Origin: Promethearchaeota archaeon
GTDB taxonomy: Archaea; Asgardarchaeota; Hermodarchaeia; Hermodarchaeales; Hermodarchaeaceae
Length of the DNA: 9,235 bases
Assembly (NCBI GenBank): GCA_048938295.1
Contig: JBHLMI010000048.1
Coordinates: 1-9,235, forward strand
Direction: 5' to 3'
Shown here: piece by piece, positions 1 through 9,045 of the stretch
Layout of the letters: every line of letters begins with the position of its first letter
Position numbering within the stretch: position 1 is the stretch's first letter
The notes under the pieces: model-generated
The model's input: the letters and a program-made list of their open reading frames with translations, nothing else
The model's database searches: none
What the model was told of the DNA's origin: nothing
Translations under genes and position numbers: made by a program

Positions 1-31
1 ACGATCCGTTGCGGTGGACAATCACTTTTTT
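1..31 (+). repeat. Array repeat copy 1 (right arm only, truncated by window start)
   Basis: GTTGCGGTGGACAATCACTTTTTT matches the right arm of copy 4 (GTTGCGGTGGACGACCACTTTTT). Confidence 0.85.
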
Positions 32-55
32 CATGTTATTTGTGTGCGCGTTGGG

Positions 56-946
56 TTAGAGGTAGGTTTCGGGTTCTTTTCTGTCGGGGTAGCCTTTGTG
101 TAGATCGCTTTGTGATTTGAGAACGCGTTTGCTCATGACCCGTGCGCCGGTGGGACAGTTTTTGACGCAGGCACAGCACCAGATGCATGCATTATGGTCG
201 GTGGTAATCAACTGCAGGTTGTATCCGATCATGGGGGATGGATTGGATGACACATGTTGAATTCGAATTGCAGCAGTGGGGCAGACGTCTACGCACGTGC
301 CGCATTTGGTGCATTGGTCTTCATTGGTGGAGGGGGTGGCTAATGCGCCGTAGTCGTACCAGGTGAGATTGGCACGCATGGATAACGAGTACGGGGTTGT
401 ACCAGGAGGAGTGACGGGGGAGAGGTCCTCCATGGTATCGACCTGTGCATATTTGTCCCGGATTTGTTGGCCAAACGCTTTGGCTTTGGCGAGATCTTTT
501 GTGTCAGGTCGTCCATGGGCTGTAGGTACTTCAGGGACGCTAAAGGAGTGTTCGCATAGAAAAACCCCTGCAGCGATGGGTTGGAATCCCACCTCGGAGA
601 CAATGTCGCCTAGTTCATAGAGTGCGTCCTCGTAGGCGCGGTTGCCGTAGGTGACGACAATGACGACTGGGATTTTTTGTGCCCGTTTAGCTCCATAGGG
701 TTCCCTGTTACCTGTGAGTCGTCGGATCCGGTAGGCGGCTTCGGTGGGGACGCGTCCGGCGTAGACGGGCACGGAGATAATGGCGAGCTCATCGGTGAAT
801 TCCTTAAATTGCTGGGTGCGTGCACTGGGCGGAGTCAGGTCTATGTGTTCTATGGGGGCTTGGATGCCTTGGGCGATAGCTTCAGCTACCTTCCTTGAGC
901 CCCCGGTTGGAGAGAAACTGATGACTTTAACAGCTCTAATTTTCAA
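56..946 (-). CDS. Flavodoxin-domain / 2x[4Fe-4S] ferredoxin fusion protein (EFR1-like family)
   Basis: N-terminal flavodoxin-type motifs FSPTGGSRKVA, VPVYAGRVP, YGNRAYEDAL, EHS and GRPD. C-terminal CxxCxxCxxxCP motifs CTKCGTCVDVCP and CIWCCACVKNCP. TTG start with GAGGT 8 nt upstream. Confidence 0.9.
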   Translation of the reverse strand: MKIRAVKVISFSPTGGSRKVAEAIAQGIQAPIEHIDLTPPSARTQQFKEFTDELAIISVPVYAGRVPTEAAYRIRRLTGNREPYGAKRAQKIPVVIVVTYGNRAYEDALYELGDIVSEVGFQPIAAGVFLCEHSFSVPEVPTAHGRPDTKDLAKAKAFGQQIRDKYAQVDTMEDLSPVTPPGTTPYSLSMRANLTWYDYGALATPSTNEDQCTKCGTCVDVCPTAAIRIQHVSSNPSPMIGYNLQLITTDHNACIWCCACVKNCPTGARVMSKRVLKSQSDLHKGYPDRKEPETYL

Positions 947-982
947 TGGAATTTACCTCAATTGGGTTTGAATTTATTGATG

Positions 983-991
983 TTATAAAAA
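983..991 (-). promoter_or_regulatory. Archaeal-type TATA box (TTTTTATAA) for the 56..946 gene
   Basis: Reads TTTTTATAA on the minus strand, about 36 nt upstream of the start, with an SD-like GAGGT (955-959) between. Confidence 0.6.
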
Positions 992-1025
992 TCTAACATA
1001 CCTTGAGAGACGTTTTGTGCGGCAC

Positions 1026-1089
1026 GGGAGCGGGTGTATCACTCGGAAACACGGGTGTTGTCCCAGACTGGGGTGGACGCTCATTTTTT
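1026..1089 (+). repeat. Array repeat copy 2
   Basis: GGGAGCGGGTGTATCACTCGGAAACACGGGTGTTGTCCCAGACTGGGGTGGACGCTCATTTTTT. Centre contains CCCA-GAC-TGGG hairpin. Confidence 0.93.
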
Positions 1090-1208
1090 GTCTTCTAATG
1101 ATTTCGCAGTTTTCTAATATGTGCTTTTCCAGTGAAGAAGTTTTATCTGCCCTGGCTTTGTGGAATCTGTATTGAGTATTGATTTTGCATGAATTGGTGG
1201 AGTTTGTT

Positions 1209-1556
1209 ATGGCGTTGATTGATACGGCGAAAATCTTGGCGAAGGCGGGTTCCATTGTGTGTATCATTTTAGGGATTCTTGCTGGTGTGTTGAATGGTCT
1301 TGTGATGTATGAAGAGTTTAGTGGACGGCATGGTATTGCTGTTGAGACTACTCTGTGGTTTTCATTAGCGATTGTCGCGGTGGTCTTCGGGTTCATTATT
1401 CTGTTCTATTGTGTGCCGAGGATCGACCAGGATCGGCAAACAGCAGCCATTTATCTGATTATTTTTGGTGTGATAGCGGCGATTGGTTCGTTCCTTGTCG
1501 GTGGGGTGTTAATATTCGTCGCAGGAATTTTGTTGGCGGTGGAGCAAGCGCGCTAA
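1209..1556 (+). CDS. Small integral membrane protein (about 115 aa, 3-4 hydrophobic helices), function unknown
   Basis: The listed ORF 1179..1556 has a better start at ATG 1209, preceded by GGTGGAG. Long hydrophobic stretches, and it is the sole long + strand ORF between repeats 2 and 3. Confidence 0.8.
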   Translation: MALIDTAKILAKAGSIVCIILGILAGVLNGLVMYEEFSGRHGIAVETTLWFSLAIVAVVFGFIILFYCVPRIDQDRQTAAIYLIIFGVIAAIGSFLVGGVLIFVAGILLAVEQAR

Positions 1557-1700
1557 TTGAACGAAGCCTAATAACCTGATGACGTGGGCATTGAGCTCGT
1601 AAATATCCCAAGCCAATTTTGTTAACGATGTGACTTTAGCCTCCCAACTCTTCTGAGGGATTCCTTGCAATGGACAGCTTGGGAGCCTTTTGTGCGATAC

Positions 1701-1769
1701 GGGAGCGGTTGTATCACTCGGAACACAGGTCCTGTAGACTATCCGTTGGGGTGGACGACCACTTTTTTT
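1701..1769 (+). repeat. Array repeat copy 3
   Basis: GGGAGCGGTTGTATCACTCGGAACACAGGTCCTGTAGACTATCCGTTGGGGTGGACGACCACTTTTTTT. Also shares the upstream flank TTTTGTGCG..ACG (1688-1701) with copy 2 (1013-1026). Confidence 0.95.
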
Positions 1770-1817
1770 GCTAGGTTTTAGGATGGCAAGAGTAATTAGA
1801 AACTAAAGAAGAATAGG

Positions 1818-2921
1818 TTGAGTGGTGTTGGTATGGCACGTGTGGGGTTGGTGGTTTGTTTCATGGGGCTATTGTGGGTTTCGTTGATGGGGGGGCTTCC
1901 GGGGGGAATGTTCGGTGTTGGTGCGGTGGAGGCGCAGAGTGGGGGGTTCAATTTTGTGGCTTATGGGGATACGCGGTCGCATGAGCTTCCGGCGGCGGTG
2001 TCACCGGTGCATGATGGGTTGGTGGCGATGTATCTTGGAGAAAATCCGGAGTTTGTGTTGCATACAGGGGATATGGTGATGGCGGGAGGGATCTGGGATC
2101 AGTGGGTGGAGTTTAACGATTCGATTCAAGGGATTTGGGCGGCAGGAATTCCTTTCTATGGTGTGGTGGGAAACCACGAAAAATACACGGGAACTTGGTA
2201 TGTGTATGATGAGGGATTGAACAATTATACCACCTTTTTTGATTTCGGTGATGCAGTGGATGTGCCCGGTGAAACAGAATTACAGTACGCTTTCACTTAT
2301 GAGGGCGTTCATTTCGTGTTCTTGAATACCGAGGATTACTTCGACGATATGTTTGGGGGTACGCAGCAGTTTAACTGCTCAAGTGGGCAAATGAATTGGT
2401 TATCCAGTTATTTGGTGACTGTCGATCCCGAGGAGTTTCTTGTGGTAACGTTTCATCGCACCGCTTGGTCCATTCTCTTTGATCAACCAAATCGCTGGGA
2501 GGAAGCGCAAACGATTCGTGATGACTTCCATGACCTGTTTGTGCAGTACGATGTCGATTTAGTCTTAATGGGCCATGATCATTATTATTATCGCACTCTG
2601 CGGGATGGGATCTATTATGTCACGACGGGGGGTGGAGGAGGCCCACTGGCAGAAATTGATGTGACGGCTCCGATTTGGCAACCAGGTGATGTGGCCGCTT
2701 CGGAGTACCATTACTGTAACATCAAAGTGAATTCCACCGATGTCACCGTGACAGCATACACATCCGACCACAGTCTGTTAGATTCTTTCAGTATTGAAAG
2801 ACCGAGTAACCCTCTCCCTGGCCCACCCATTGAACTTCTTGTCCTGGGTCTCTGTGTCGTTACCATCATTGTCATTATCATTGTCGTTGTTTTGATCCTC
2901 TATTGGCGAAGGAAAAGCTGA
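1818..2921 (+). CDS. Secreted, C-terminally membrane-anchored metallophosphoesterase (calcineurin-like superfamily, purple-acid-phosphatase-like)
   Basis: Five metal-ligand motif blocks: YGDTRS, HTGDMV, VVGNHE, VTFHR and GHDHYY. Hydrophobic N-terminal signal, Pro-rich linker, C-terminal TM helix and WRRKS tail. The start could be ATG 1833. Confidence 0.9.
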   Translation: MSGVGMARVGLVVCFMGLLWVSLMGGLPGGMFGVGAVEAQSGGFNFVAYGDTRSHELPAAVSPVHDGLVAMYLGENPEFVLHTGDMVMAGGIWDQWVEFNDSIQGIWAAGIPFYGVVGNHEKYTGTWYVYDEGLNNYTTFFDFGDAVDVPGETELQYAFTYEGVHFVFLNTEDYFDDMFGGTQQFNCSSGQMNWLSSYLVTVDPEEFLVVTFHRTAWSILFDQPNRWEEAQTIRDDFHDLFVQYDVDLVLMGHDHYYYRTLRDGIYYVTTGGGGGPLAEIDVTAPIWQPGDVAASEYHYCNIKVNSTDVTVTAYTSDHSLLDSFSIERPSNPLPGPPIELLVLGLCVVTIIVIIIVVVLILYWRRKS

Positions 2922-2948
2922 GGCCCGATACAATTAGCGCTATTGGAA

Positions 2949-2955
2949 TTTTTTT
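2949..2955 (+). terminator. Oligo-T tract (T7) 28 nt after the phosphoesterase stop; candidate archaeal-type terminator
   Basis: TTTTTTT directly downstream of TGA 2919-2921. Confidence 0.4.
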
Positions 2956-2995
2956 GTGTCCGATGAAAATTAATTGGATGTCCTGGAGTGGCCGA

Positions 2996-3058
2996 GGGAG
3001 CTTGGGTGTATTATTCGTGACAAGTTAATTACCGGGTTGCGGTGGACGACCACTTTTT
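2996..3058 (+). repeat. Array repeat copy 4
   Basis: GGGAGCTTGGGTGTATTATTCGTGACAAGTTAATTACCGGGTTGCGGTGGACGACCACTTTTT. Both arms are conserved and the centre is divergent. Confidence 0.92.
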
Positions 3059-3074
3059 GTTGATATTTGTGGGA

Positions 3075-3254
3075 TTATGCCTGTTCTTCGATGATCCAGA
3101 GGTGGCTGGTTTTGACTGAGCTGGGGAAATCGGGACCGATCGCGGGAATGATGGTGATGAGCGTGCCTTTGAGGGTGTTGAGGAAGTCCTCCAGTTTTTG
3201 TTTGTCGTGATTCATATCGATAGGGAGTTTGTGAACTTTGTAAGTTGACACCAT
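3075..3254 (-). CDS. 59-aa hypothetical protein missed by the ORF track: MVSTYKVHKLPIDMNHDKQKLEDFLNTLKGTLITIIPAIGPDFPSSVKTSHLWIIEEQA
   Basis: Hand-translated ATG(3254) to TAA(3075), 60 codons. SD GGGTGA at 3259-3264 and TATA TTTTTATAT at 3289-3297. It fills the unit between repeats 4 and 5. Confidence 0.85.
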   Translation of the reverse strand: MVSTYKVHKLPIDMNHDKQKLEDFLNTLKGTLITIIPAIGPDFPSSVKTSHLWIIEEQA

Positions 3255-3288
3255 TTACTCACCCAAGAGGTGTATCGGAGGATTGGAC

Positions 3289-3297
3289 ATATAAAAA
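3289..3297 (-). promoter_or_regulatory. Archaeal-type TATA box (TTTTTATAT) for the 59-aa gene
   Basis: About 35 nt upstream of ATG 3254, with a GGGTGA SD in between. Confidence 0.6.
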
Positions 3298-3317
3298 CTT
3301 GGAGTAGCGTAGACAAA

Positions 3318-3380
3318 GGGAGTAGGCGTATCACTTGGAAACACGGGTGTTTTTCGATTGGTTTGTGTGGATAACCATTT
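3318..3380 (+). repeat. Array repeat copy 5
   Basis: GGGAGTAGGCGTATCACTTGGAAACACGGGTGTTTTTCGATTGGTTTGTGTGGATAACCATTT. The short T-run overlaps the methyltransferase stop codon (3379-3381). Confidence 0.9.
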
Positions 3381-4035
3381 ACTTATCATGCGAGGTGTTG
3401 CGGGCATAGAGTTTCATATGCCAGATGAAGGTTTTTTGATGGACGAGTTGTGTGAAGCCGGTGTTTTTTAGCAGCGTGTCAATTGCTTTGACGGGGTGGA
3501 TGAAGGTTCGGAAGGGGTGGCGTCGTAGCCATAGGATGAAATTTTCCCATCCGATGGAGAGCTTGCTCGTTAAATTCGTCCGCGGGATTACGATGCCAAA
3601 GAATGTGCGAGCAAGGGCGGCGGATCGTTCAACGAGGGTTTGCCAATCGTCATAGCAACAGATTACTTTATCGAGGGTGACAATGTCGGTGGGGGAGAGG
3701 GTGGAGGCGATGTCGACGAAATCCCCATGATGGTAGCTAATGCGGTCCGTATGACCTTGTCGAGTGGCTTCCTCCTTTGTCGCTTCGATATAAGCCATGG
3801 AGGCTTCCACGTTAATGCTGTGGCGTAACCCAGCTTGTAGTAATTCGTGTTGAATTATGCCGATGCCACCACCAATATCGAGTAAGGTTTTTCCCTGGAC
3901 CCCTTGGCTTTTGAGGGCATCAACGAGTAGGTGCGTGGTTTTATTCATGCCCTTCACCCGATAGGTGCGGAGTTCCGCTTCAGCTACACTCCGATCGAAG
4001 GTCGTTTCAAGTACCTGATACTGACAACAGCCCAT
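3379..4035 (-). CDS. Class I SAM-dependent methyltransferase (substrate unknown; superficially BchM-like size and layout)
   Basis: Motif I LLDIGGGIG, acidic post-motif (VEAS), HGDF, and motif IV-like DIVTLDKVICCY. N-terminal MGCC. Confidence 0.88.
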   Translation of the reverse strand: MGCCQYQVLETTFDRSVAEAELRTYRVKGMNKTTHLLVDALKSQGVQGKTLLDIGGGIGIIQHELLQAGLRHSINVEASMAYIEATKEEATRQGHTDRISYHHGDFVDIASTLSPTDIVTLDKVICCYDDWQTLVERSAALARTFFGIVIPRTNLTSKLSIGWENFILWLRRHPFRTFIHPVKAIDTLLKNTGFTQLVHQKTFIWHMKLYARNTSHDK

Positions 4036-4120
4036 GATTCATGCTTCCATCTATTTAGGATAGAATAAGGTAACGCAACAAACTAGTTAATATCTCATTT
4101 GGAAAATCTGTACGGAAAGA

Positions 4121-4190
4121 AGCCTGGGTGTATTATGGCGTAAACATGGGTGCTGCACGATGCAGTTGGGACAGACGACCATCTTTCTTT
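4121..4190 (+). repeat. Array repeat copy 6
   Basis: AGCCTGGGTGTATTATGGCGTAAACATGGGTGCTGCACGATGCAGTTGGGACAGACGACCATCTTTCTTT. Centre hairpin CTGCA-CGA-TGCAG. Confidence 0.88.
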
Positions 4191-4342
4191 CAAGATGAAT
4201 TAGTCTCATAGTTTAGAAGAATAACACCCCGGTCTTTGAAGGCGCATCTCATAGAAATGAAGTTATTAGTATCTCAACTGACATTAAGGAGTGAAATTCA
4301 GCTCTACCAAGAATAGATGGAGGCGTTCCTCTGTCACAGTTT

Positions 4343-4960
4343 ATGAATGGAGAAAGAGTGAAGCCGAATCAAGTCCCGTATTTGGTTGCGTTTTTTGCCA
4401 GAGAGTATATGCCCAAAATAAAGGCGTTTCTCGAGACGGAGTATCCGACTCGTCAAGAAGGCGTAGAGGGGTTCACAACCGTGATGCGGGCAATTTATCC
4501 GCAGGTCTATCAGTTGCAACAGCAGTTACCCGAATCCCTAGCAGAAGAGATGATTCTAGAGCTTCCTGCGTTTATTAGTCTTCATGAGTGGGAGAAAGAG
4601 CCCAGAACATGGAACAAGGGAAAGAAAAAGGCGCTCACCGCGTTTCTGGAAGGACACGAGACGCCTGCCGATGAGTACGGGAATCCTGAGTTTCTTAGTG
4701 GTATGTTTGTCTCGATTATGATGTTATTGAATTCAACCTATAAGGGGCTAATCTCGCTAAGAGGTCTTTGCAGCAACTTCGAAGATGCCGTATACACTGA
4801 ATCCTATTTTAGCTCAGTTTATCATCAGTTTGAATATGAGATTTTTGTCAAAGGGCTCCTCAAAACCCTTAGCGATCTCAGAGGAATTCTTCCGTTAATC
4901 TATGAGATTGAGCGAAAACTCGCACTGTATCCACCCACTGGGGAACTGGAAAAGATGTAG
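4343..4960 (+). CDS. Hypothetical 205-aa soluble, probably helical protein; no family recognised
   Basis: Longest ORF between repeats 6 and 7, with protein-like composition and no recognisable motif. Confidence 0.75.
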   Translation: MNGERVKPNQVPYLVAFFAREYMPKIKAFLETEYPTRQEGVEGFTTVMRAIYPQVYQLQQQLPESLAEEMILELPAFISLHEWEKEPRTWNKGKKKALTAFLEGHETPADEYGNPEFLSGMFVSIMMLLNSTYKGLISLRGLCSNFEDAVYTESYFSSVYHQFEYEIFVKGLLKTLSDLRGILPLIYEIERKLALYPPTGELEKM

Positions 4961-4993
4961 GGAAACTAGAAAAAAGTACTACCTTTCAATTAA

Positions 4994-5061
4994 AGCCTAG
5001 GATTGTATGTCTGAACAGCAGGAGTTGTAGGATCCTCTGGCATGGACGACCACTTCTTTTT
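4994..5061 (+). repeat. Array repeat copy 7
   Basis: AGCCTAGGATTGTATGTCTGAACAGCAGGAGTTGTAGGATCCTCTGGCATGGACGACCACTTCTTTTT. Right arm intact, centre contains palindrome AGGATCCT. Confidence 0.85.
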
Positions 5062-5120
5062 CCCTTCGGTATTCTCCAAGCGGGGAAGTGTTAGTATGAC
5101 AGATGTTGGGAAGGACCTCT

Positions 5121-5163
5121 GCTGCAACCTTTAAAATGCAGCTCGCCAAAAACGAGAGAAAAA
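5121..5163 (-). terminator. Candidate terminator region downstream of the DUF4256 gene
   Basis: Minus strand has two T5 tracts (5148-5152, 5159-5163) and an inverted repeat GCTGCA/TGCAGC (5121-5142). Confidence 0.35.
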
Positions 5164-5189
5164 GCGTTGAAATTCGAAAATGTCAGAGT

Positions 5190-5756
5190 TTAGACTCGTA
5201 GCGAGCCGCGGAAGGCTCTAGAGCTATAGTATGAAGGCGCACTGTTGTGATAGACGAAGACGGTGTTGTAGCGGCGATCGCAAAAGAGGGCGCCGCCGAG
5301 TTTTCTGATATCAGGAGGGGTTTTTATCCAGCTTGAGGTCTTCGCATCGAACTGTCCGAGTTTCTGTAACGCTCGATATTGATCTTCGGTTAGAAGCTCA
5401 ATGCCCATAGCGGTGGCCATATCGATTGCGTTATTTTTTGGTTTCGCTGATTTCCGTGCGTCCTGCGCTTCACGGTCGTAGCAAACATTTCTGCGGCCTG
5501 TTGGAGTTTCTGGTGAACAATCATGAAAAATGTATTCACCCGTCTTTTTATCATGACCCACAACATCTGGTTCACCGCCAGTTCGTTCCATTTCGTTGAG
5601 TGACCACAGTTTGTCAGGATTCGCTTTCAACTTTGTTTGGATGTTAGCCCATTCAATCCCTTGATGGCGGTTCATATTGTTCTCAAAGCGGGCTTTCAAC
5701 ACGCGGAGTAGTTCTTCATGTTGTTTTGGTGACAACTCCTTTTTGAGTTTGCTCAT
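5190..5756 (-). CDS. DUF4256 family protein
   Basis: Recognised by family-typical strings: LKARFENNMNRH, LWSLNEMERTGGEPDVVG, RRNVCYDREA, MGIELLTE.QYR.LQKLG.FD.KTSSW, GGALFCDRRY..VFVYHN, RAFRGSLRV. Confidence 0.9.
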   Translation of the reverse strand: MSKLKKELSPKQHEELLRVLKARFENNMNRHQGIEWANIQTKLKANPDKLWSLNEMERTGGEPDVVGHDKKTGEYIFHDCSPETPTGRRNVCYDREAQDARKSAKPKNNAIDMATAMGIELLTEDQYRALQKLGQFDAKTSSWIKTPPDIRKLGGALFCDRRYNTVFVYHNSAPSYYSSRAFRGSLRV

Positions 5757-5778
5757 ACTCTGTAGTAATCGTCCCGTG

Positions 5779-5787
5779 TTTATAAAA
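5779..5787 (-). promoter_or_regulatory. Archaeal-type TATA box (TTTTATAAA) positioned for a leaderless DUF4256 transcript
   Basis: TATA centre about 26 nt upstream of ATG 5756, with no SD motif in between. Confidence 0.65.
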
Positions 5788-5942
5788 GCATCAACGCAAG
5801 GGTGACATTGACTTTCTAGCGTATGATCATGTAAAAGATAATAGCTCTATTTTCGTCAGAAAGGCATTAAAGCATACGCTTGGAAACCAAGTTCTTCTAG
5901 AGGACCCAGTGAGGATACCAGGGGAGATGATGTGTGCTGTAA

Positions 5943-5979
5943 GGAGTCTGGGTGTATGATGGTGGAAACTCGAATGTTG
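5943..5979 (+). repeat. Array repeat copy 8 (left half recognisable; right arm degenerate or lost)
   Basis: GGAGTCTGGGTGTATGATGGTGGAAACTCGAATGTTG aligns with copy 6 (CTGGGTGTATTATGGCGTAAAC). The expected GTGGACGACCAC-T-run is not recognisable at about 5990-6005, where the next gene's stop lies. Confidence 0.7.
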
Positions 5980-6003
5980 GAAGCCAAAATTTCATATGAT
6001 GCC

Positions 6004-6822
6004 CTATTGACGGAATTTGGGGAAATGGAGTTTGCCTTCTTGTTTCAGGTAGGAAAAGATCATGAGAACAAAGAGAACAATGGTGATGCCAACAAAAATG
6101 ATGGTGGAAATAACTGAAAACAATTCAAGAGGAGGAGGGAAAAGAGGAATCTGAGGTCCTGTGACCCGGCAGTAGTTTATGTAGAGTTGGGCATCAGGTT
6201 TTCCAGGGGCTTCGATTAGCTGCCAGTGGATGCGATAGTGGTGATAGGTGGCGTTAATATTAATTAGATCATGGGTGATGGTGGTGTAGTTGGTCCAGTA
6301 ACCGGGAGTTTCATTGATGTGTGGGTGGAGGGTGAGGAGATAGGAGTGAGTACCGTTCGGGAGAGGGGTGTCTGATGTGATGCTGGCGTTGAGCCCATAA
6401 AGTAGGATGAGGGCGGACGGTCCGGTGGCGCAACTTCGAAACTGGATGGTGACTTGGTTGATGTCCAAGGGGATGAAGTCTTGCCAGAACATAATGGTGT
6501 GCTCTTGGTTTGCGCGGGTGGGTTGCAGGAACAGGGTATCAGCATCTCCACCATTTTCGGTATCATTGATGAGATGGTATTGTTCTTTGGGTCCGGTGGT
6601 ATCGCCGGTAAAATGCCAGAAGGCGGGTTTAGTTGCGTTATGATCATTACCCTCCCAGCCACCAGGTTCTGTTATGGTGAAATCCCAATTGGCTACTAAA
6701 TCAACGGGAACAGGAAGTTGCTTTGACGCCCTAGAGAGAGGAACTTGGTTAGTTATCGGCGTCAGGGAGAATATGGTCAGTAAACTAATCAGGAGTAGAC
6801 AGGTTGTGAGCGATTTTTTCAT
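6004..6822 (-). CDS. Secreted / C-terminally membrane-anchored hypothetical protein (272 aa), probably beta-rich extracellular domain
   Basis: Signal peptide MKKSLTTCLLLISLLTIFSL, several N-x-S/T sequons (NATK, NDTE, NASI, NGTH, NETP no, NYTT, NATY), PPPLEL then a TM helix and basic tail. SD GGGTGA at 6829-6834. Confidence 0.82.
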   Translation of the reverse strand: MKKSLTTCLLLISLLTIFSLTPITNQVPLSRASKQLPVPVDLVANWDFTITEPGGWEGNDHNATKPAFWHFTGDTTGPKEQYHLINDTENGGDADTLFLQPTRANQEHTIMFWQDFIPLDINQVTIQFRSCATGPSALILLYGLNASITSDTPLPNGTHSYLLTLHPHINETPGYWTNYTTITHDLININATYHHYRIHWQLIEAPGKPDAQLYINYCRVTGPQIPLFPPPLELFSVISTIIFVGITIVLFVLMIFSYLKQEGKLHFPKFRQ

Positions 6823-6975
6823 TCCTTTTCACCCGCTGGAGATGCTATTTCACCGCTGGAATGTGAGGATAAATGTTCTTTACCGGTTTAAAGAACGCAT
6901 TGGTCCTTATGTGAATATAAAGAAAAGATTGAGAAAAACCGAATACACCATTTCGTGCAGGACCCCTCAAAGATT

Positions 6976-7027
6976 GAGCCGAGAATGTCAATGACCATGA
7001 GTTGATTGGAGTTGACGACCACTTTTT
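6976..7027 (+). repeat. Array repeat copy 9 (shortened centre)
   Basis: GAGCCGAGAATGTCAATGACCATGAGTTGATTGGAGTTGACGACCACTTTTT. The right arm GACGACCACTTTTT is exact and ACCATGAGT is shared with copy 10. Confidence 0.8.
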
Positions 7028-7081
7028 GTATGCTATTTTTTAACTTGGATGTCTTATATGTGATAGGTCGACGAGGAGGCC

Positions 7082-8869
7082 TTGTGTACGTCAACTGCTG
7101 TGCTCATGAAGTTGTTGGAAACAGCGCCGTGGCGCTATGACCAGGGGATTGATTTTCTCACACTGGGTGTTGATTCGAAGCTTAAAAAACGGATTGCAGA
7201 TGAATTTATCTTTCCGTCGGATGATGTTCTTGAAATAGGGAGTGGAACGGGTTCCTTGGCGTTGTTGTGTGCCCAGAAAGGGGCGCAGGTGATGGGCATT
7301 GATGTATCACCTACAATGATTGCATTAGCTCAAACCAAAGTGGCGAAGGCCCGGTTGTCGGATCGGGTTCAGTTTCGGGAAATGGACCTGACGGAAATTG
7401 ACCAGTTGCCCGATGCCTCCTTTGATGTGGTGATTGCCACCTTGGTGTTTAGTGAATTGTCGGAGGTGGAGCAGTTTTATGCGCTCCGTGAAGCGTGGCG
7501 GCTGCTTCGCCCAGAGGGACGGCTAATCATTATGGATGAAGTTCGACCCCAATTGCTCCGCAAGATGCTTCCCTACTACATGTTACGTGTCCCTCTCACA
7601 ACATTCACTTTTCTATTGAGCCAAACAACGACCCATCGGGTGAAGAATCTCGAAACAAAGCTCGAAATATCCGGATTTCGAATTACCATGCAAGAGCAGC
7701 ATTTACTAGATTCGATTATGTTACTCGTCGCCACCAAACAACCCCAACGACCCATTGAAGCAGCAGGTCCTCGTCTGTTTCCAACGGTTCACGTTGGATC
7801 ACGAATGAAGTATGTGGCTGAAACTATTTTTCGTTGGGTAGGTGTCCCTATCACACCCGGGTATATCGCTGTGGGACAGCCCTCCGATGAAAGCCCTGTT
7901 CTAGTCACATGCAATTATGACTTGACGGTTCGCCGCGTTCTAAAAACACTTCAACACGCACAGGTTGATTGCTTTCTACTGGTAGCTCCAACTCGGGGAA
8001 TCAACGTGTGGTGTGCCTCTTGTGGTGGAGATTTTACGGCACACTCCGTTATCGCGGCAATCAAGCTTAGTGGCATTAACAACCTGGTGCAGCACCGACA
8101 TTTGTTTCTACCTCAACTGGCAGCACCGGGAGTTGACCCCGATGTGATTAAGGAGGAGACGGGATGGTCAGCACAGTTTGGACCAGTGAAAGCCAAAGAT
8201 ATACCCACCTACTTGAAGAATGGAGCACAGAAAACCGAGGCCATACGCACTGTACGATTTCCGGTGTCAAAGCGCTTAGAAATGGCAAGTCTATATGCGA
8301 TCATAATTTCACTCCTTGCAATCCCCATCAGCCTAATCTTTGCACCCCCCAAGCTCCTCACGACCCTAGGAATCATTTGGCTGCTTATCTGCGGTGCCTA
8401 TCTTCTTTCGCCATATCTCCCGAGTAGATCTGGGTTCGTGAAAACGCTGGTGTATGGCATCTGTGCCATCTCCGTTGTCCTACTTGTGGCCCTTTATACC
8501 ACGGGGAGCCTGTTAGGATTGCCATGGGAACTTCTTCTAACGATTCTTGTTTTGCTAATCTTAGGGGTTGATTTCAACGGGATGACTCCGATACTACCCA
8601 GCGACCTCGGTCGTCTACTCTATGGCCGAGGTCACTCAGAAATGCCCTTCTTCACAGGAAAGTATCCGCTTCAACCCTATGGACGAATCACCGAGGATGT
8701 GGAGTCATGTATTGGATGTGGGATGTGCGTACAAGTCTGTCCAAGGAATGTCTACCAGTTAGATAAAGCAAGACGTAAGGCGGATTTAATACACCCCAAG
8801 GACTGTGTCAACTGTAATGCTTGTGTTCATCGATGCCCCGCACATTGCCTTCACATTATCAAATCATGA
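7082..8869 (+). CDS. Fusion: class I SAM methyltransferase + HgcA/CdhD-like corrinoid-binding domain + ~4 TM helices + HgcB-like 2x[4Fe-4S] ferredoxin (HgcAB-like fusion with N-terminal methyltransferase)
   Basis: EIGSGTG motif I in a UbiE-like N-terminus. SPVLVTCNYDLT, TRGINVWCASCGGDFT and LPQLAAPGV match the corrinoid domain of the HgcA/CdhD family. A hydrophobic block follows, then CIGCGMCVQVCP (8708) and CVNCNACVHRCP (8804). The exact start (TTG 7082 vs ATG 7106) is uncertain. Confidence 0.85.
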   Translation: MCTSTAVLMKLLETAPWRYDQGIDFLTLGVDSKLKKRIADEFIFPSDDVLEIGSGTGSLALLCAQKGAQVMGIDVSPTMIALAQTKVAKARLSDRVQFREMDLTEIDQLPDASFDVVIATLVFSELSEVEQFYALREAWRLLRPEGRLIIMDEVRPQLLRKMLPYYMLRVPLTTFTFLLSQTTTHRVKNLETKLEISGFRITMQEQHLLDSIMLLVATKQPQRPIEAAGPRLFPTVHVGSRMKYVAETIFRWVGVPITPGYIAVGQPSDESPVLVTCNYDLTVRRVLKTLQHAQVDCFLLVAPTRGINVWCASCGGDFTAHSVIAAIKLSGINNLVQHRHLFLPQLAAPGVDPDVIKEETGWSAQFGPVKAKDIPTYLKNGAQKTEAIRTVRFPVSKRLEMASLYAIIISLLAIPISLIFAPPKLLTTLGIIWLLICGAYLLSPYLPSRSGFVKTLVYGICAISVVLLVALYTTGSLLGLPWELLLTILVLLILGVDFNGMTPILPSDLGRLLYGRGHSEMPFFTGKYPLQPYGRITEDVESCIGCGMCVQVCPRNVYQLDKARRKADLIHPKDCVNCNACVHRCPAHCLHIIKS

Positions 8870-8934
8870 ACGTAAAATGATGGAACCATGAGTGTTGTAG
8901 ACGAACTGTGGCGGTTGATAGCCACTTTCTTTTT
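8867..8934 (+). repeat. Array repeat copy 10
   Basis: TGAACGTAAAATGATGGAACCATGAGTGTTGTAGACGAACTGTGGCGGTTGATAGCCACTTTCTTTTT. The left end coincides with the fusion gene's TGA stop. Confidence 0.78.
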
Positions 8935-9045
8935 CAAAAAAGATTGATGGGGAGAATACGGCTGAACTCGTTGTGGTGAGCATATTAGGCAAATTATTTC
9001 TGGGGGTTGTCGTGTAGTGGGTAAAGGTAGGTGGTTGGTTCGTTG

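Follow-up and report, generated by a model that had tools for sequence, protein, structure and literature searches.

Single-gene units separated by copies of the 16S rRNA 3′ trailer form integron-like arrays in Hermodarchaeia

In a 9,235-nt contig of a Promethearchaeota archaeon from the Hermodarchaeia (JBHLMI010000048.1, assembly GCA_048938295.1; hereafter the window, that is, the whole stretch of DNA analyzed), we observe ten copies of a repeat, all on the plus strand, all intergenic and one at each gene junction. The repeat copies the 16S rRNA 3′ trailer, which comprises the processing-stem 3′ strand and an oligo-T run. On balance, we consider the window to be the middle of a 16S-anchored array in which gene cassettes have accreted, with homology-dependent insertion as the most likely route.

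An earlier, sequence-only reading of this DNA had described ten related elements in a single orientation, and an nhmmer profile built from the ten copies recovers each of them where it had been placed, with E values of 5e-13 to 1e-7 for nine; copy 1 scores weakly (E 8e-3) because it is truncated by the contig end. The profile search and the ORF list also bear out the localized, co-oriented layout with one gene per unit and one copy per junction, and the even division of the genes between the strands (five plus, five minus; Table 1). Other parts of that description need amendment. Although the copies are intergenic, three touch the end of a neighboring ORF (3306-3386, 5931-6008 and 8855-8940). 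A length of about 65 bp suits some copies but several are longer, with homology reaching about 145 nt upstream, and the right arm ascribed to every copy has been lost from the one at 5931-6008. The supposedly variable center contains a consensus, ACGATCnGnTGGGG, that is present across 60-90 copies from relatives. Each unit thus extends from a T-run, through one gene that may lie in either orientation, to a trailer copy of 65-145 nt. TATA-like boxes lie upstream of the three minus-strand genes inspected (56-946, 3075-3254 and 5190-5756), and a TATA-like TTTTTTAAC motif precedes the plus-strand gene F4.

Table 1. Repeat copies and cassette genes in the window. F numbers denote cassette families.
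Feature	Position	Strand	Evidence and remarks
Repeat copy 1	1..33	+	Center, right arm and T-run only; nhmmer model positions 45-76, E 8e-3
F10, flavodoxin-like + 4Fe-4S protein, 296 aa	56..946	-	Pfam Fer4 1.6e-10
Repeat copy 2, type-1 trailer copy	1013..1095	+	nhmmer E 4e-11; native 16S trailer homology from ATACCTTG
Small membrane protein gene (F19 region)	1209..1556	+	ORF list; homologue in G003 array
Repeat copy 3, type-1 trailer copy	1688..1775	+	nhmmer E 5e-12
F11, membrane-anchored metallophosphoesterase	1833..2921	+	Pfam Metallophos 5e-14
Repeat copy 4, type-2-like trailer copy	2987..3064	+	nhmmer E 4e-9; trailer typing
59-aa ORF, smallest unit (0.32 kb)	3075..3254	-	ORF list; no Pfam match
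Repeat copy 5, type-2-like	3306..3386	+	nhmmer E 1e-10; overlaps next gene's stop codon
F1, SAM methyltransferase	3379..4035	-	Pfam methyltransferase families
Repeat copy 6, right-arm variant GGGACAGACGACCA	4107..4196	+	nhmmer E 5e-13
F2, 205 aa, without known family	4343..4960	+	Pfam; five species' arrays, + throughout
Repeat copy 7	4985..5067	+	nhmmer E 3e-10
F20, DUF4256	5190..5756	-	Pfam 2e-90
Repeat copy 8, degenerate, right arm lost	5931..6008	+	nhmmer E 1e-7; overlaps F3 stop codon
F3, 272-aa secreted or membrane protein	6004..6822	-	Four species, - throughout
Repeat copy 9	6950..7033	+	nhmmer E 3e-8
F4, methyltransferase / CdhD-like domain / 4Fe-4S domain fusion	7106..8869	+	Pfam
Repeat copy 10	8855..8940	+	nhmmer E 5e-10; overlaps stop codon of neighboring ORF
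Next cassette gene, start only, cut by contig end	9031..9235	+	ORF list

Whereas the repeat had been taken for a novel site, it is a copy of the 16S trailer, and the arrays are anchored on the 16S gene. These start directly after the 16S gene on contig C48 of this genome (G000), in the congener G014 and in the sister genus, and by Rfam annotation of G000:C48, G014:C26 and G016:C21 the 16S 3′ end immediately precedes the first copy. In a trailer copy, the stem strand that pairs with the 16S leader precedes a small GTGG-ACGA-CCAC palindrome and then oligo-T. In G006, trailer positions +51 to +121, which correspond to the repeat, form 49 base pairs with leader positions −128 to −58, and the cofold of leader and trailer reaches −104 kcal/mol, compared with −72 ± 4 for shuffled trailers. 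The copies reach leftward to different extents; the upstream homology of some includes the last 7 nt of 16S rRNA (CACCTCC), and copies can contain between 7 and 27 nt from the 16S gene proper. Native trailers are of type 1 in G000 and G014 and of type 2 in G006 and GCA_016840185.1, and arrays of single genomes mix both types, each native to different species. Non-native copies retain the hairpin pairing via compensatory changes. The farther a copy lies from the 16S gene, the lower its repeat score (pooled Spearman rho −0.69, p 0.0003).

The window contig and C48, which bears the 16S end and the first two repeat copies, are separate in the assembly; the probable link of the window contig to the 16S gene in this genome comes from the shared repeats and from G014, where the 16S gene and the window families F1 and F3 lie on one contig. 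A profile scan of the whole 2.52-Mb assembly found, beyond the window contig, only the two copies on C48 and one partial copy at C33:15829-15879, and the motif is therefore not genome-wide. Of the 14 copies in the genome, 13 lie on two small contigs in a single orientation, on which ground we rejected a dispersed REP/MITE repeat; the alternative of a genome-wide REP/MITE or terminator, raised in the sequence-only reading itself, is not borne out. Arrays are present in 12 of 14 congeneric species and weakly in one of four sister-genus genomes, with copies co-oriented within each contig, whereas a search of 22 further genomes from the phylum revealed none. A closed genome from a different family holds a single extra copy of the 16S end and trailer.

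Units recur across congeners in a different order but in the same orientation. Orientation relative to the repeat is conserved in 107 of 109 between-species comparisons of shared families, whereas the same neighbor is found in only 18 of 187, so that the fixed gene order in relatives, which had been named as grounds for abandoning the cassette interpretation, is not seen. Individual cassettes have identical ends in three to four species, as F4 does in four. F1 occurs in the arrays of six species, always on the minus strand relative to the repeat, and F10 has orthologues in the G001 and G006 arrays, likewise on the minus strand. Contigs from a sediment run (X1) cover different cassettes at depths of 13.5, 26 and 32-37, and in one of them position 1747, inside repeat copy 3, is joined to a different left partner.

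The same genome contains at least four such arrays with unrelated repeats. One, on C18, repeats the actin 3′ end at least nine times, each repeat ending in a hairpin and T-run, and two further arrays, C66- and C32-type, are built on other repeats. Despite the unrelated sequences, these three sister arrays have the same architecture as the 16S array, and the actin repeat, like the 16S one, copies the 3′ end of its anchor gene. The family F6 lies in the 16S-type array of four species and here in the C66-type array, with only a trailer relic adjoining it.

Junctions between units are spread over about 100 nt of the repeat. By maximum-likelihood breakpoints, identity linked to the left gene ends between −103 and +15 relative to the core, with half of the breakpoints 45-103 nt before it, and identity linked to the right gene starts at +13 to +40, just past the core or T-run, in 13 of 14 comparisons. 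A number of junctions fall close together, no more than 20 nt from GGTGGACGACCAC, and the most conserved 15 nt of the repeat coincide with most junctions; because background identity in the core is very high, breakpoint analysis has little power there. The tyrosine recombinase family PF00589 gave no match on any array contig across 15 genomes of the genus (this one and 14 congeners), all of them fragmented MAGs in which unassembled array ends may hold further genes, and we rejected integrase-bearing units on this basis. The only conserved tyrosine recombinase of the genus is a 314-aa Xer-like protein that never lies on an array contig. Pfam searches of this genome revealed no Y1 transposase, serine recombinase, IS110 or Cas1, and none of the 25 commonest among the 119 Pfam families in 82 proteins from the array loci and near flanks is a mobile-element family. 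In three species, the unit that comes first after 16S is a gene for a conserved 419-aa nuclease; this gene, too, is flanked by repeats, and G014 either lacks it or has it in degraded form.

We propose that a unit would enter in circular form or as a linear ends-in fragment, bearing a trailer copy from its former host, and would insert by Campbell-type recombination with a trailer copy on the chromosome. Such an event would duplicate the trailer, preserve both the terminator and the native processing stem of 16S and shift older units outward, and recombination between direct copies would excise units again. The recombination would most likely depend on homology and proceed via the host RadA machinery, possibly aided by a nuclease. 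The varying left extent, the arrays with unrelated repeats and the lack of a recombinase on array contigs fit homology-dependent insertion better. Because the junctions scatter and an actin 3′-end array exists in the same genome, this route is tentatively favored. Several points count against it. Homologous recombination is inefficient on 65-145 nt at 70-95% identity. The right-linked starts and the clustering of junctions near GGTGGACGACCAC would be equally expected from a site-specific crossover. Homology leaves the frequent single-gene units without explanation, the movement of F6 between arrays is not accounted for by repeat homology, and an enzyme gene may lie at an unassembled array end in these fragmented MAGs.

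The sequence-only reading had instead proposed a site-specific capture system with its enzyme encoded outside the window. A recombinase encoded elsewhere, either the conserved Xer-like protein or a novel enzyme, would then cut and rejoin within GGGGTGGACGACCAC and the T-run, and the native 16S trailer would be the equivalent of attI. The conserved 15 nt at most junctions, the narrow range of right-gene-linked starts, the alternative partner joined at 1747 in run X1, the strict co-orientation of the copies and the position of the nuclease gene next to 16S in three species all agree with such a system. The left-linked breakpoints, half of which lie well before the core, do not, and one conserved tyrosine recombinase is set against at least four arrays with unrelated repeats. 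Furthermore, the palindrome arms measure just 4 bp, the repeats decay along the array rather than being maintained, and the nuclease gene is a repeat-flanked unit that G014 lacks or has in degraded form. With no dedicated enzyme on any array contig in the 15 genomes, junctions that scatter and other arrays that copy the 3′ ends of other genes, the proposal is not supported as made, and we regard an integron-type site-specific enzyme as less likely than homology-dependent recombination and, taken by itself, doubtful.

Direct repeats of the 3′ end of an RNA gene are a hallmark of integrase-mediated insertion beside tRNA and tmRNA genes, and the arrays could accordingly be relics of integrase-bearing elements that integrated serially at a 16S-trailer attachment site and were later deleted to about one gene and one att copy each. 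The extra 16S end and trailer in the closed genome of another family would suit such a history, as would the Heimdallarchaeum elements HeimM2 and HeimV2, which insert directly beside 16S (PMC8813620). The array contigs of the 15 genomes, however, contain no integrase or fragment of one, and random decay would not give discrete one-gene units with identical ends in several species; this history is improbable. Still less probable is that the copies are regulatory or RNA modules (terminators, processing sites or protein-binding sites) kept for expression, with ordinary rearrangement behind the differences in order. Their small hairpin and T-run would terminate archaeal transcription arriving from the left, and the native copy acts as RNA in 16S processing, but all copies lie on one strand while half the genes lie on the other, they decay with distance from 16S, and they carry fragments of the 16S 3′ end that are of no use. 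Nor do they fold better than chance: single-stranded DNA folds of eight copies, on both strands, gave no attC-like hairpin (z −1.8 to +0.4 versus shuffles), and RNAalifold found no common stem among copies (0 and 4 pairs). In addition, 90% of neighbor pairs differ between species while orientation is kept. Least credible, to the point that we give it almost no weight, is a fragment of a canonical integron (a CALIN, or attC cluster without a nearby integrase gene), a type reported from Asgard archaea. The layout matches, and small CALINs in Hermodarchaeia MAGs are listed by Ghaly et al. 2022 (PMC9668308). Yet a regular-expression search of nine window copies with 25 nt per side, on both strands and at spacings of 30-130 nt, found no RYYYAAC/GTTRRRY pair, and this, together with the lack of an attC hairpin, upholds the earlier statement that the separators differ from canonical attC sites. 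Mostly co-oriented, promoterless cassettes read from a Pc promoter were rejected, as the genes run both ways (five plus, five minus) and several have TATA-like boxes upstream. Two public assemblies with these repeats are absent from the integron list of Ghaly et al. (PMC9668308), a weak point given that the genomes there were quality-filtered.

Should homology-dependent insertion be the right reading, foreign genes have a sanctioned way in beside the sole 16S gene of these Asgard archaea, and ribosome production would be undisturbed because each insertion brings its own processing-stem strand and terminator. Together with the actin-anchored array, this points to integron-like arrays built without integron sites or integrase. 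More tentatively, and with less confidence than we attach to the array itself, Hermodarchaeia may possess a general, homology-templated form of gene capture, in which the 3′ ends of essential genes with high expression and high conservation (the single 16S gene, actin and others) act as landing pads and small one-gene circles carry the pad of the previous host, possibly aided by the two-domain 419-aa nuclease. Since units carry a copy of the landing pad, they would move between species without an element-encoded integrase; if true, genes would pass horizontally, by a route that has not been described before, in the archaeal lineage closest to eukaryotes. IntegronFinder-type screens are not expected to detect arrays that lack attC cores and hairpin, and the archaeal cassette gene pool may therefore be underestimated. 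The repeats also break MAG assemblies exactly at 16S, and this may be part of the reason that Asgard bins so often lack rRNA genes.

The integron-like layout is thus real, with sites that differ from attC and apparently without the integron enzyme. Like integrons and CALINs, among them the archaeal ones (PMC9668308) and the sedentary chromosomal integrons whose attC sites are homogeneous (Vibrio VCRs), the arrays have co-oriented repeats, one per junction, and mostly one gene per unit. As in integrons, the gene travels with the repeat on a fixed side, the units are reshuffled among relatives with orientation preserved, the cargo is assorted and accessory, and new units seem to enter at one end. 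The sites, however, are trailer copies without R″/R′ cores or a single-strand hairpin, they decay along the array, and the junctions do not fall at one fixed base. No IntI was found with the array, its genes run both ways with TATA-like boxes upstream of several, and it inserts at the flank of an essential RNA gene, whereas an integron inserts at attI beside intI. Xer/dif (pdif-type) modules have 28-bp dif-like sites of 11-6-11 structure that alternate in orientation around the modules; we rejected this class, as the copies are co-oriented and their sole palindrome is 4-4-4 nt. In tandem islands at tRNA and tmRNA 3′ ends, the end of the gene is repeated directly with every insertion. The array likewise has direct repeats that copy the 3′ end or flank of its target RNA gene, with the native gene intact and the insertions stacked on one side, but its target is the 16S processing-stem trailer (actin 3′ end in the sister array), and its units, at least ten per array, are single genes without an integrase, common to several species and reshuffled among them. 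Campbell-type pop-in also duplicates a homologous segment around the insert, is oriented by homology, varies in its crossover point and is reversible; to our knowledge, it is familiar from the laboratory and from plasmids, not as a natural builder of arrays of 10-20 units on 65-145 nt of homology. HeimM2 and HeimV2 differ in being single elements of 8 and 44 kb with their own machinery, and the searched text of PMC8813620 mentions no cassette, integron or partition site. Their insertion point lies precisely between a tRNA gene and the single 16S rRNA gene (PMC8813620), so that there, as in the array described here, the immediate 3′ flank of the sole 16S gene of an Asgard archaeon is an insertion point for foreign DNA.

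Re-inspection of the window upheld the sequence-only reading of ten related elements, each of which is present, intergenic and on the + strand, and of a one-gene-per-unit layout with five genes on each strand. The cargo includes a flavodoxin/4Fe-4S protein, a metallophosphoesterase, two methyltransferases and a DUF4256 protein, and an Rfam scan of the window (E up to 1) returned nothing but a chance snoRNA-like match. An nhmmer profile built from the ten copies recovers those in the window at E values of 5e-13 to 1e-7, with a value of 8e-3 for the copy at 1-33, which is truncated by the contig end. Beyond the window, which is the whole of contig C31, a profile scan of the entire assembly (an archaeal MAG of 2.52 Mb in 66 contigs, 45.8% GC, 91.6% complete) added only three hits: two copies on contig C48, which is 6.3 kb long, and a partial one on contig C33. 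Given so few copies elsewhere, the motif is not distributed genome-wide and we are therefore dealing with a local array rather than a dispersed REP or MITE. The partial copy, comprising the centre, right arm and T-run, lies alone, flanked by radA and a small methyltransferase gene, distant from every array.

The conserved ORF-like stretch that adjoins the first repeat in three genomes belongs to the 16S rRNA gene (Rfam RF01959) and represents its 3′ part. On C48, this gene ends in GGATCACCTCC, and the first repeat copy lies inside the 3′ trailer; beyond the gene for a 419-aa protein, a second stretch of ~145 nt repeats the trailer from CACCTCC on. The same order of 16S gene, trailer copy and array is found on contig C26 of the congeneric genome G014 and on contig C21 of G016, from the sister genus. 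In G006, a congener for which the complete 16S gene and its leader are assembled, trailer positions +51 to +121 are exactly the repeat, and they pair with leader positions -128 to -58 through 49 base pairs at a cofold energy of -104 kcal/mol, versus -72 ± 4 kcal/mol for shuffled trailers. From this pairing and the adjacency to 16S, we conclude that the 3′ strand of the 16S processing stem constitutes the repeat, whose end is formed by a GTGG-ACGA-CCAC palindrome followed by an oligo-T run. Oligo-T runs are the usual archaeal termination signal.

The rRNA genes examined in the genome of the window and in G006 are much longer than the model positions they cover, with large insertions that are probably introns, and the 16S and 23S genes are unlinked. 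In the closed genome G029, from another family of the phylum, the final ~27 nt of the 16S gene recur, together with the trailer, ~1 kb downstream of the gene, and the hairpin of this extra copy carries compensatory changes (CCCCACCC/GGGTGGGG versus CCCGCCC/GGGCGGG).

Locations of arrays, genes and repeat copies; the genome is that of the window unless stated otherwise
Feature	Location	Strand	Description
16S rRNA gene, 3′ half	C48 (L001), 1-1445		about 1360 nt for 684 model positions
First repeat copy	C48, 1506-1579		inside 16S 3′ trailer
419-aa gene	C48 (L001), 1603-2862	minus	first unit after 16S gene
DUF4256 gene	window, 5237-5852 (span of high contig depth)
Actin array	C18:800-11475		3′ part of actin gene, then at least nine co-oriented copies of its 3′ end
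C66 array	C66:188-50904		nine co-oriented intergenic copies around TTTCGAAGACATACATGCC over 51 kb
F6 gene (506 aa)	C66:31466-33474		between C66-type repeats; orientation opposite to copies in 16S-type arrays
C32 array	C32:247-14710		seven co-oriented intergenic copies around TTTACTCACAAAnCCAAGCCTTAC over 15 kb
Xer-like gene	C32:33535
Partial repeat copy	C33:15829-15879	minus	between methyltransferase gene and radA
23S rRNA gene, 3′ part	C20:44859-46418		1560 nt for 830 model positions
16S rRNA gene of G006	L046 (G006:C71), 619-4212		3594 nt for 1478 model positions
Extra 16S end and trailer of G029	L061 (G029:C1:450750-470749), 300-1500		~1 kb downstream of 16S gene

A sequence-only covariance model detected the repeat in 12 of the 14 species of the genus, weakly in one of four sister-genus genomes and in none of 22 other genomes of the phylum. 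Wherever it occurs in the relatives, its copies are grouped together on one or a few contigs, and on any one contig they all point the same way. Calling genes on 20 array contigs and clustering the proteins gave 40 families present in at least two species. The shuffling of units that had been proposed from the window is borne out by these families: relative to the repeat, their genes point the same way in 107 of 109 between-species comparisons, and a neighboring gene is retained in only 18 of 187. Unit ends can be identical across three or four species, as for the cassette families F4 and F2. The farther a copy lies from the 16S-proximal end, the lower its repeat score (pooled Spearman rho -0.69, p 0.0003), and in distal parts of the arrays genes of the cassette families are still present where the repeat is no longer detectable. 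Native trailers fall into a type 1 (the genome of the window and G014) and a type 2 (G006 and GCA_016840185.1), and both types stand side by side in the arrays of single genomes, the window included. In the non-native copies, the pairing of the trailer hairpins is preserved through compensatory changes. On this comparative evidence, the trailer in a unit comes from a former host, and transfer between lineages is implied.

The window is also present in four sediment metagenome runs, all from one study and compared here as contigs rather than raw reads. In one of them, X1, near-identical contigs that span different cassettes have depths of 13.5 over positions 109-1626, ~26 over 1772-2723 and 2804-3421, and 32-37 over the rest, and one contig has another left partner attached at position 1747, within repeat copy 3. 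Because these are contig-level data, they are suggestive of, but not conclusive for, strains that differ in the cassettes they carry. Two loose ends, at 1016 and 1061, were rejected as recombinants, since the second trailer copy on C48 cross-aligns to window copy 2 (46 nt, 3 mismatches), and a 1766>3024 joint was discarded for having only 20 nt on one side. The DUF4256 gene reaches a contig depth of 100-480x in all four runs. We do not read this as evidence of recent transfer, because the extreme conservation of the family accounts for the depth: identity is ~80% among the best 120 of at least 8000 matches, Hodarchaeota and Nitrososphaeraceae proteins included, which is unusual for a protein of unknown function.

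The limits of shared identity define the unit. Identity linked to the left gene extends through the trailer copy, and identity linked to the right gene begins at or just past the core and T-run; a unit therefore consists of a T-run, then a gene, then a trailer copy. Most junctions lie near GGGGTGGACGACCAC. Maximum likelihood applied to each pair gives a more scattered picture: the end of left-linked identity ranges from -103 to +15 relative to the core and in half the cases precedes it by more than 45 nt, and right-linked identity starts in one case at -81. The core itself has a background identity too high to place breakpoints finely.

Further arrays in the same genome were found by counting 10-mers, genome self-BLAST being too insensitive. 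The actin array has the same architecture as the window: each copy comprises the last ~20 codons of the gene, the stop codon, a GGGAGGC/GCCTCCC hairpin and a T-run, with a spacing of about 0.5-3 kb and nhmmer E values of 1e-18 to 3e-4. The repeats of the C66 and C32 arrays are unrelated in sequence to the other separators. The gene family F6 lies inside 16S-type arrays in four congeners (G005, G007, G011 and G014). The F6 gene on C66 shares 81% protein identity with the G011 copy and 76-81% nucleotide identity with the four array copies compared, and just beyond its stop codon it retains a truncated relic of a 16S-type trailer with the exact 13-mer AAGGTATCCCGCT.

The sole conserved tyrosine recombinase of the genus is a 314-aa Xer-like protein encoded once per genome and never, in the genomes of the genus, on contigs with 16S-trailer arrays. 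A Pfam search of the genome of the window (91.6% complete) found no Y1 transposase, serine recombinase, IS110 or Cas1. Twelve TnpB-like (Cas12f1-like_TNB) genes, with no Y1 TnpA detected, are carried on contigs C2, C6, C7, C15, C19, C33, C35, C57 and C65. The 419-aa protein belongs to a family of 12 members (42-87% identity), all on short contigs, and one related-locus search of genome contigs returned no relatives. Its gene has a repeat on both flanks and is the first unit past 16S in the genome of the window, in G006 and in a 44%-identical relative; in G014, it is absent from this position and a C-terminal remnant occurs elsewhere. The protein has no sequence match in Pfam, PHROG or PDB, and the family has invariant PD...ExK...QxxxY residues. 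In the structural model (pLDDT 81.8), the N-terminal domain is beta-rich; for the C-terminal domain, matches to restriction-endonuclease folds, Mrr and MspJI among them, are of high probability but low TM-score, and we assign this domain as a predicted PD-ExK-QxxxY nuclease domain of the Mrr/restriction-endonuclease-like fold. A role as the array recombinase is unsupported, the gene being itself a repeat-flanked unit, missing or degraded in G014 and equally plausible as a defence gene; the protein may be a recombination helper, may home to the site or may be a mere defence cassette. On the public contig of protein P0003 (ENA ERZ27275891, 11.4 kb), genes for an AAA_21/OLD-like TOPRIM protein, a UDG-family protein and an MFS transporter lie upstream of the 419-aa gene, which suggests defence-type cargo in some arrays.

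With regard to mechanism, we lean cautiously toward homology-dependent Campbell-type insertion, which fits better than one sequence-specific enzyme. An incoming circle or ends-in fragment bearing a copy of the anchor tail would recombine with the homologous anchor, and each insertion would restore the native trailer and hence 16S processing and termination. Homology would set the orientation of the unit, recombination between direct copies would free units again, and conserved anchors would supply homology across species. We favor this mechanism because one genome contains at least four arrays whose separators are unrelated, and because in two of them the separators duplicate the 3′ end of the anchor gene itself and extend leftward, into that gene, by varying lengths. 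The scatter of the junctions, the decay of copies along the array and the failure to find a linked recombinase argue in the same direction. Less likely, in our view, is a site-specific system dedicated to these arrays and working at the core. In its favor are the concentration of junctions around the core, the high frequency of units with a single gene and the F6 case, for which repeat homology offers no explanation.

Several known systems invite comparison. The paper on Heimdallarchaeum (PMC8813620) offers a precedent for insertion beside the single 16S gene; aloposons were dropped as a parallel, the text searched containing no mention of partition-site repeats. A paper on ANME-1 'hotspots' was also set aside, as it does not concern repeat-delimited arrays. 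Ghaly et al. (PMC9668308) include small CALINs of Hermodarchaeia in their list, from which the two public assemblies with the present repeats are absent; the genomes behind that list were quality-filtered. The arrays resemble integrons in layout and cassette turnover but fail all tested features of attC, the integron recombination site, and no gene for an IntI-type integrase is found on the array contigs of these fragmented MAGs. As the sequence-only reading held, the separators lack the attC cores: no RYYYAAC...GTTRRRY pair occurs on either strand at any of the nine window copies scanned. Single-strand folds are no better than those of shuffles (z between -1.8 and +0.4), and the copies have no consensus structure. 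Tandem island accretion at tRNA genes gives rise to repeats in a like manner, whereas the units described here are without integrases and are one-gene modules common to several species.
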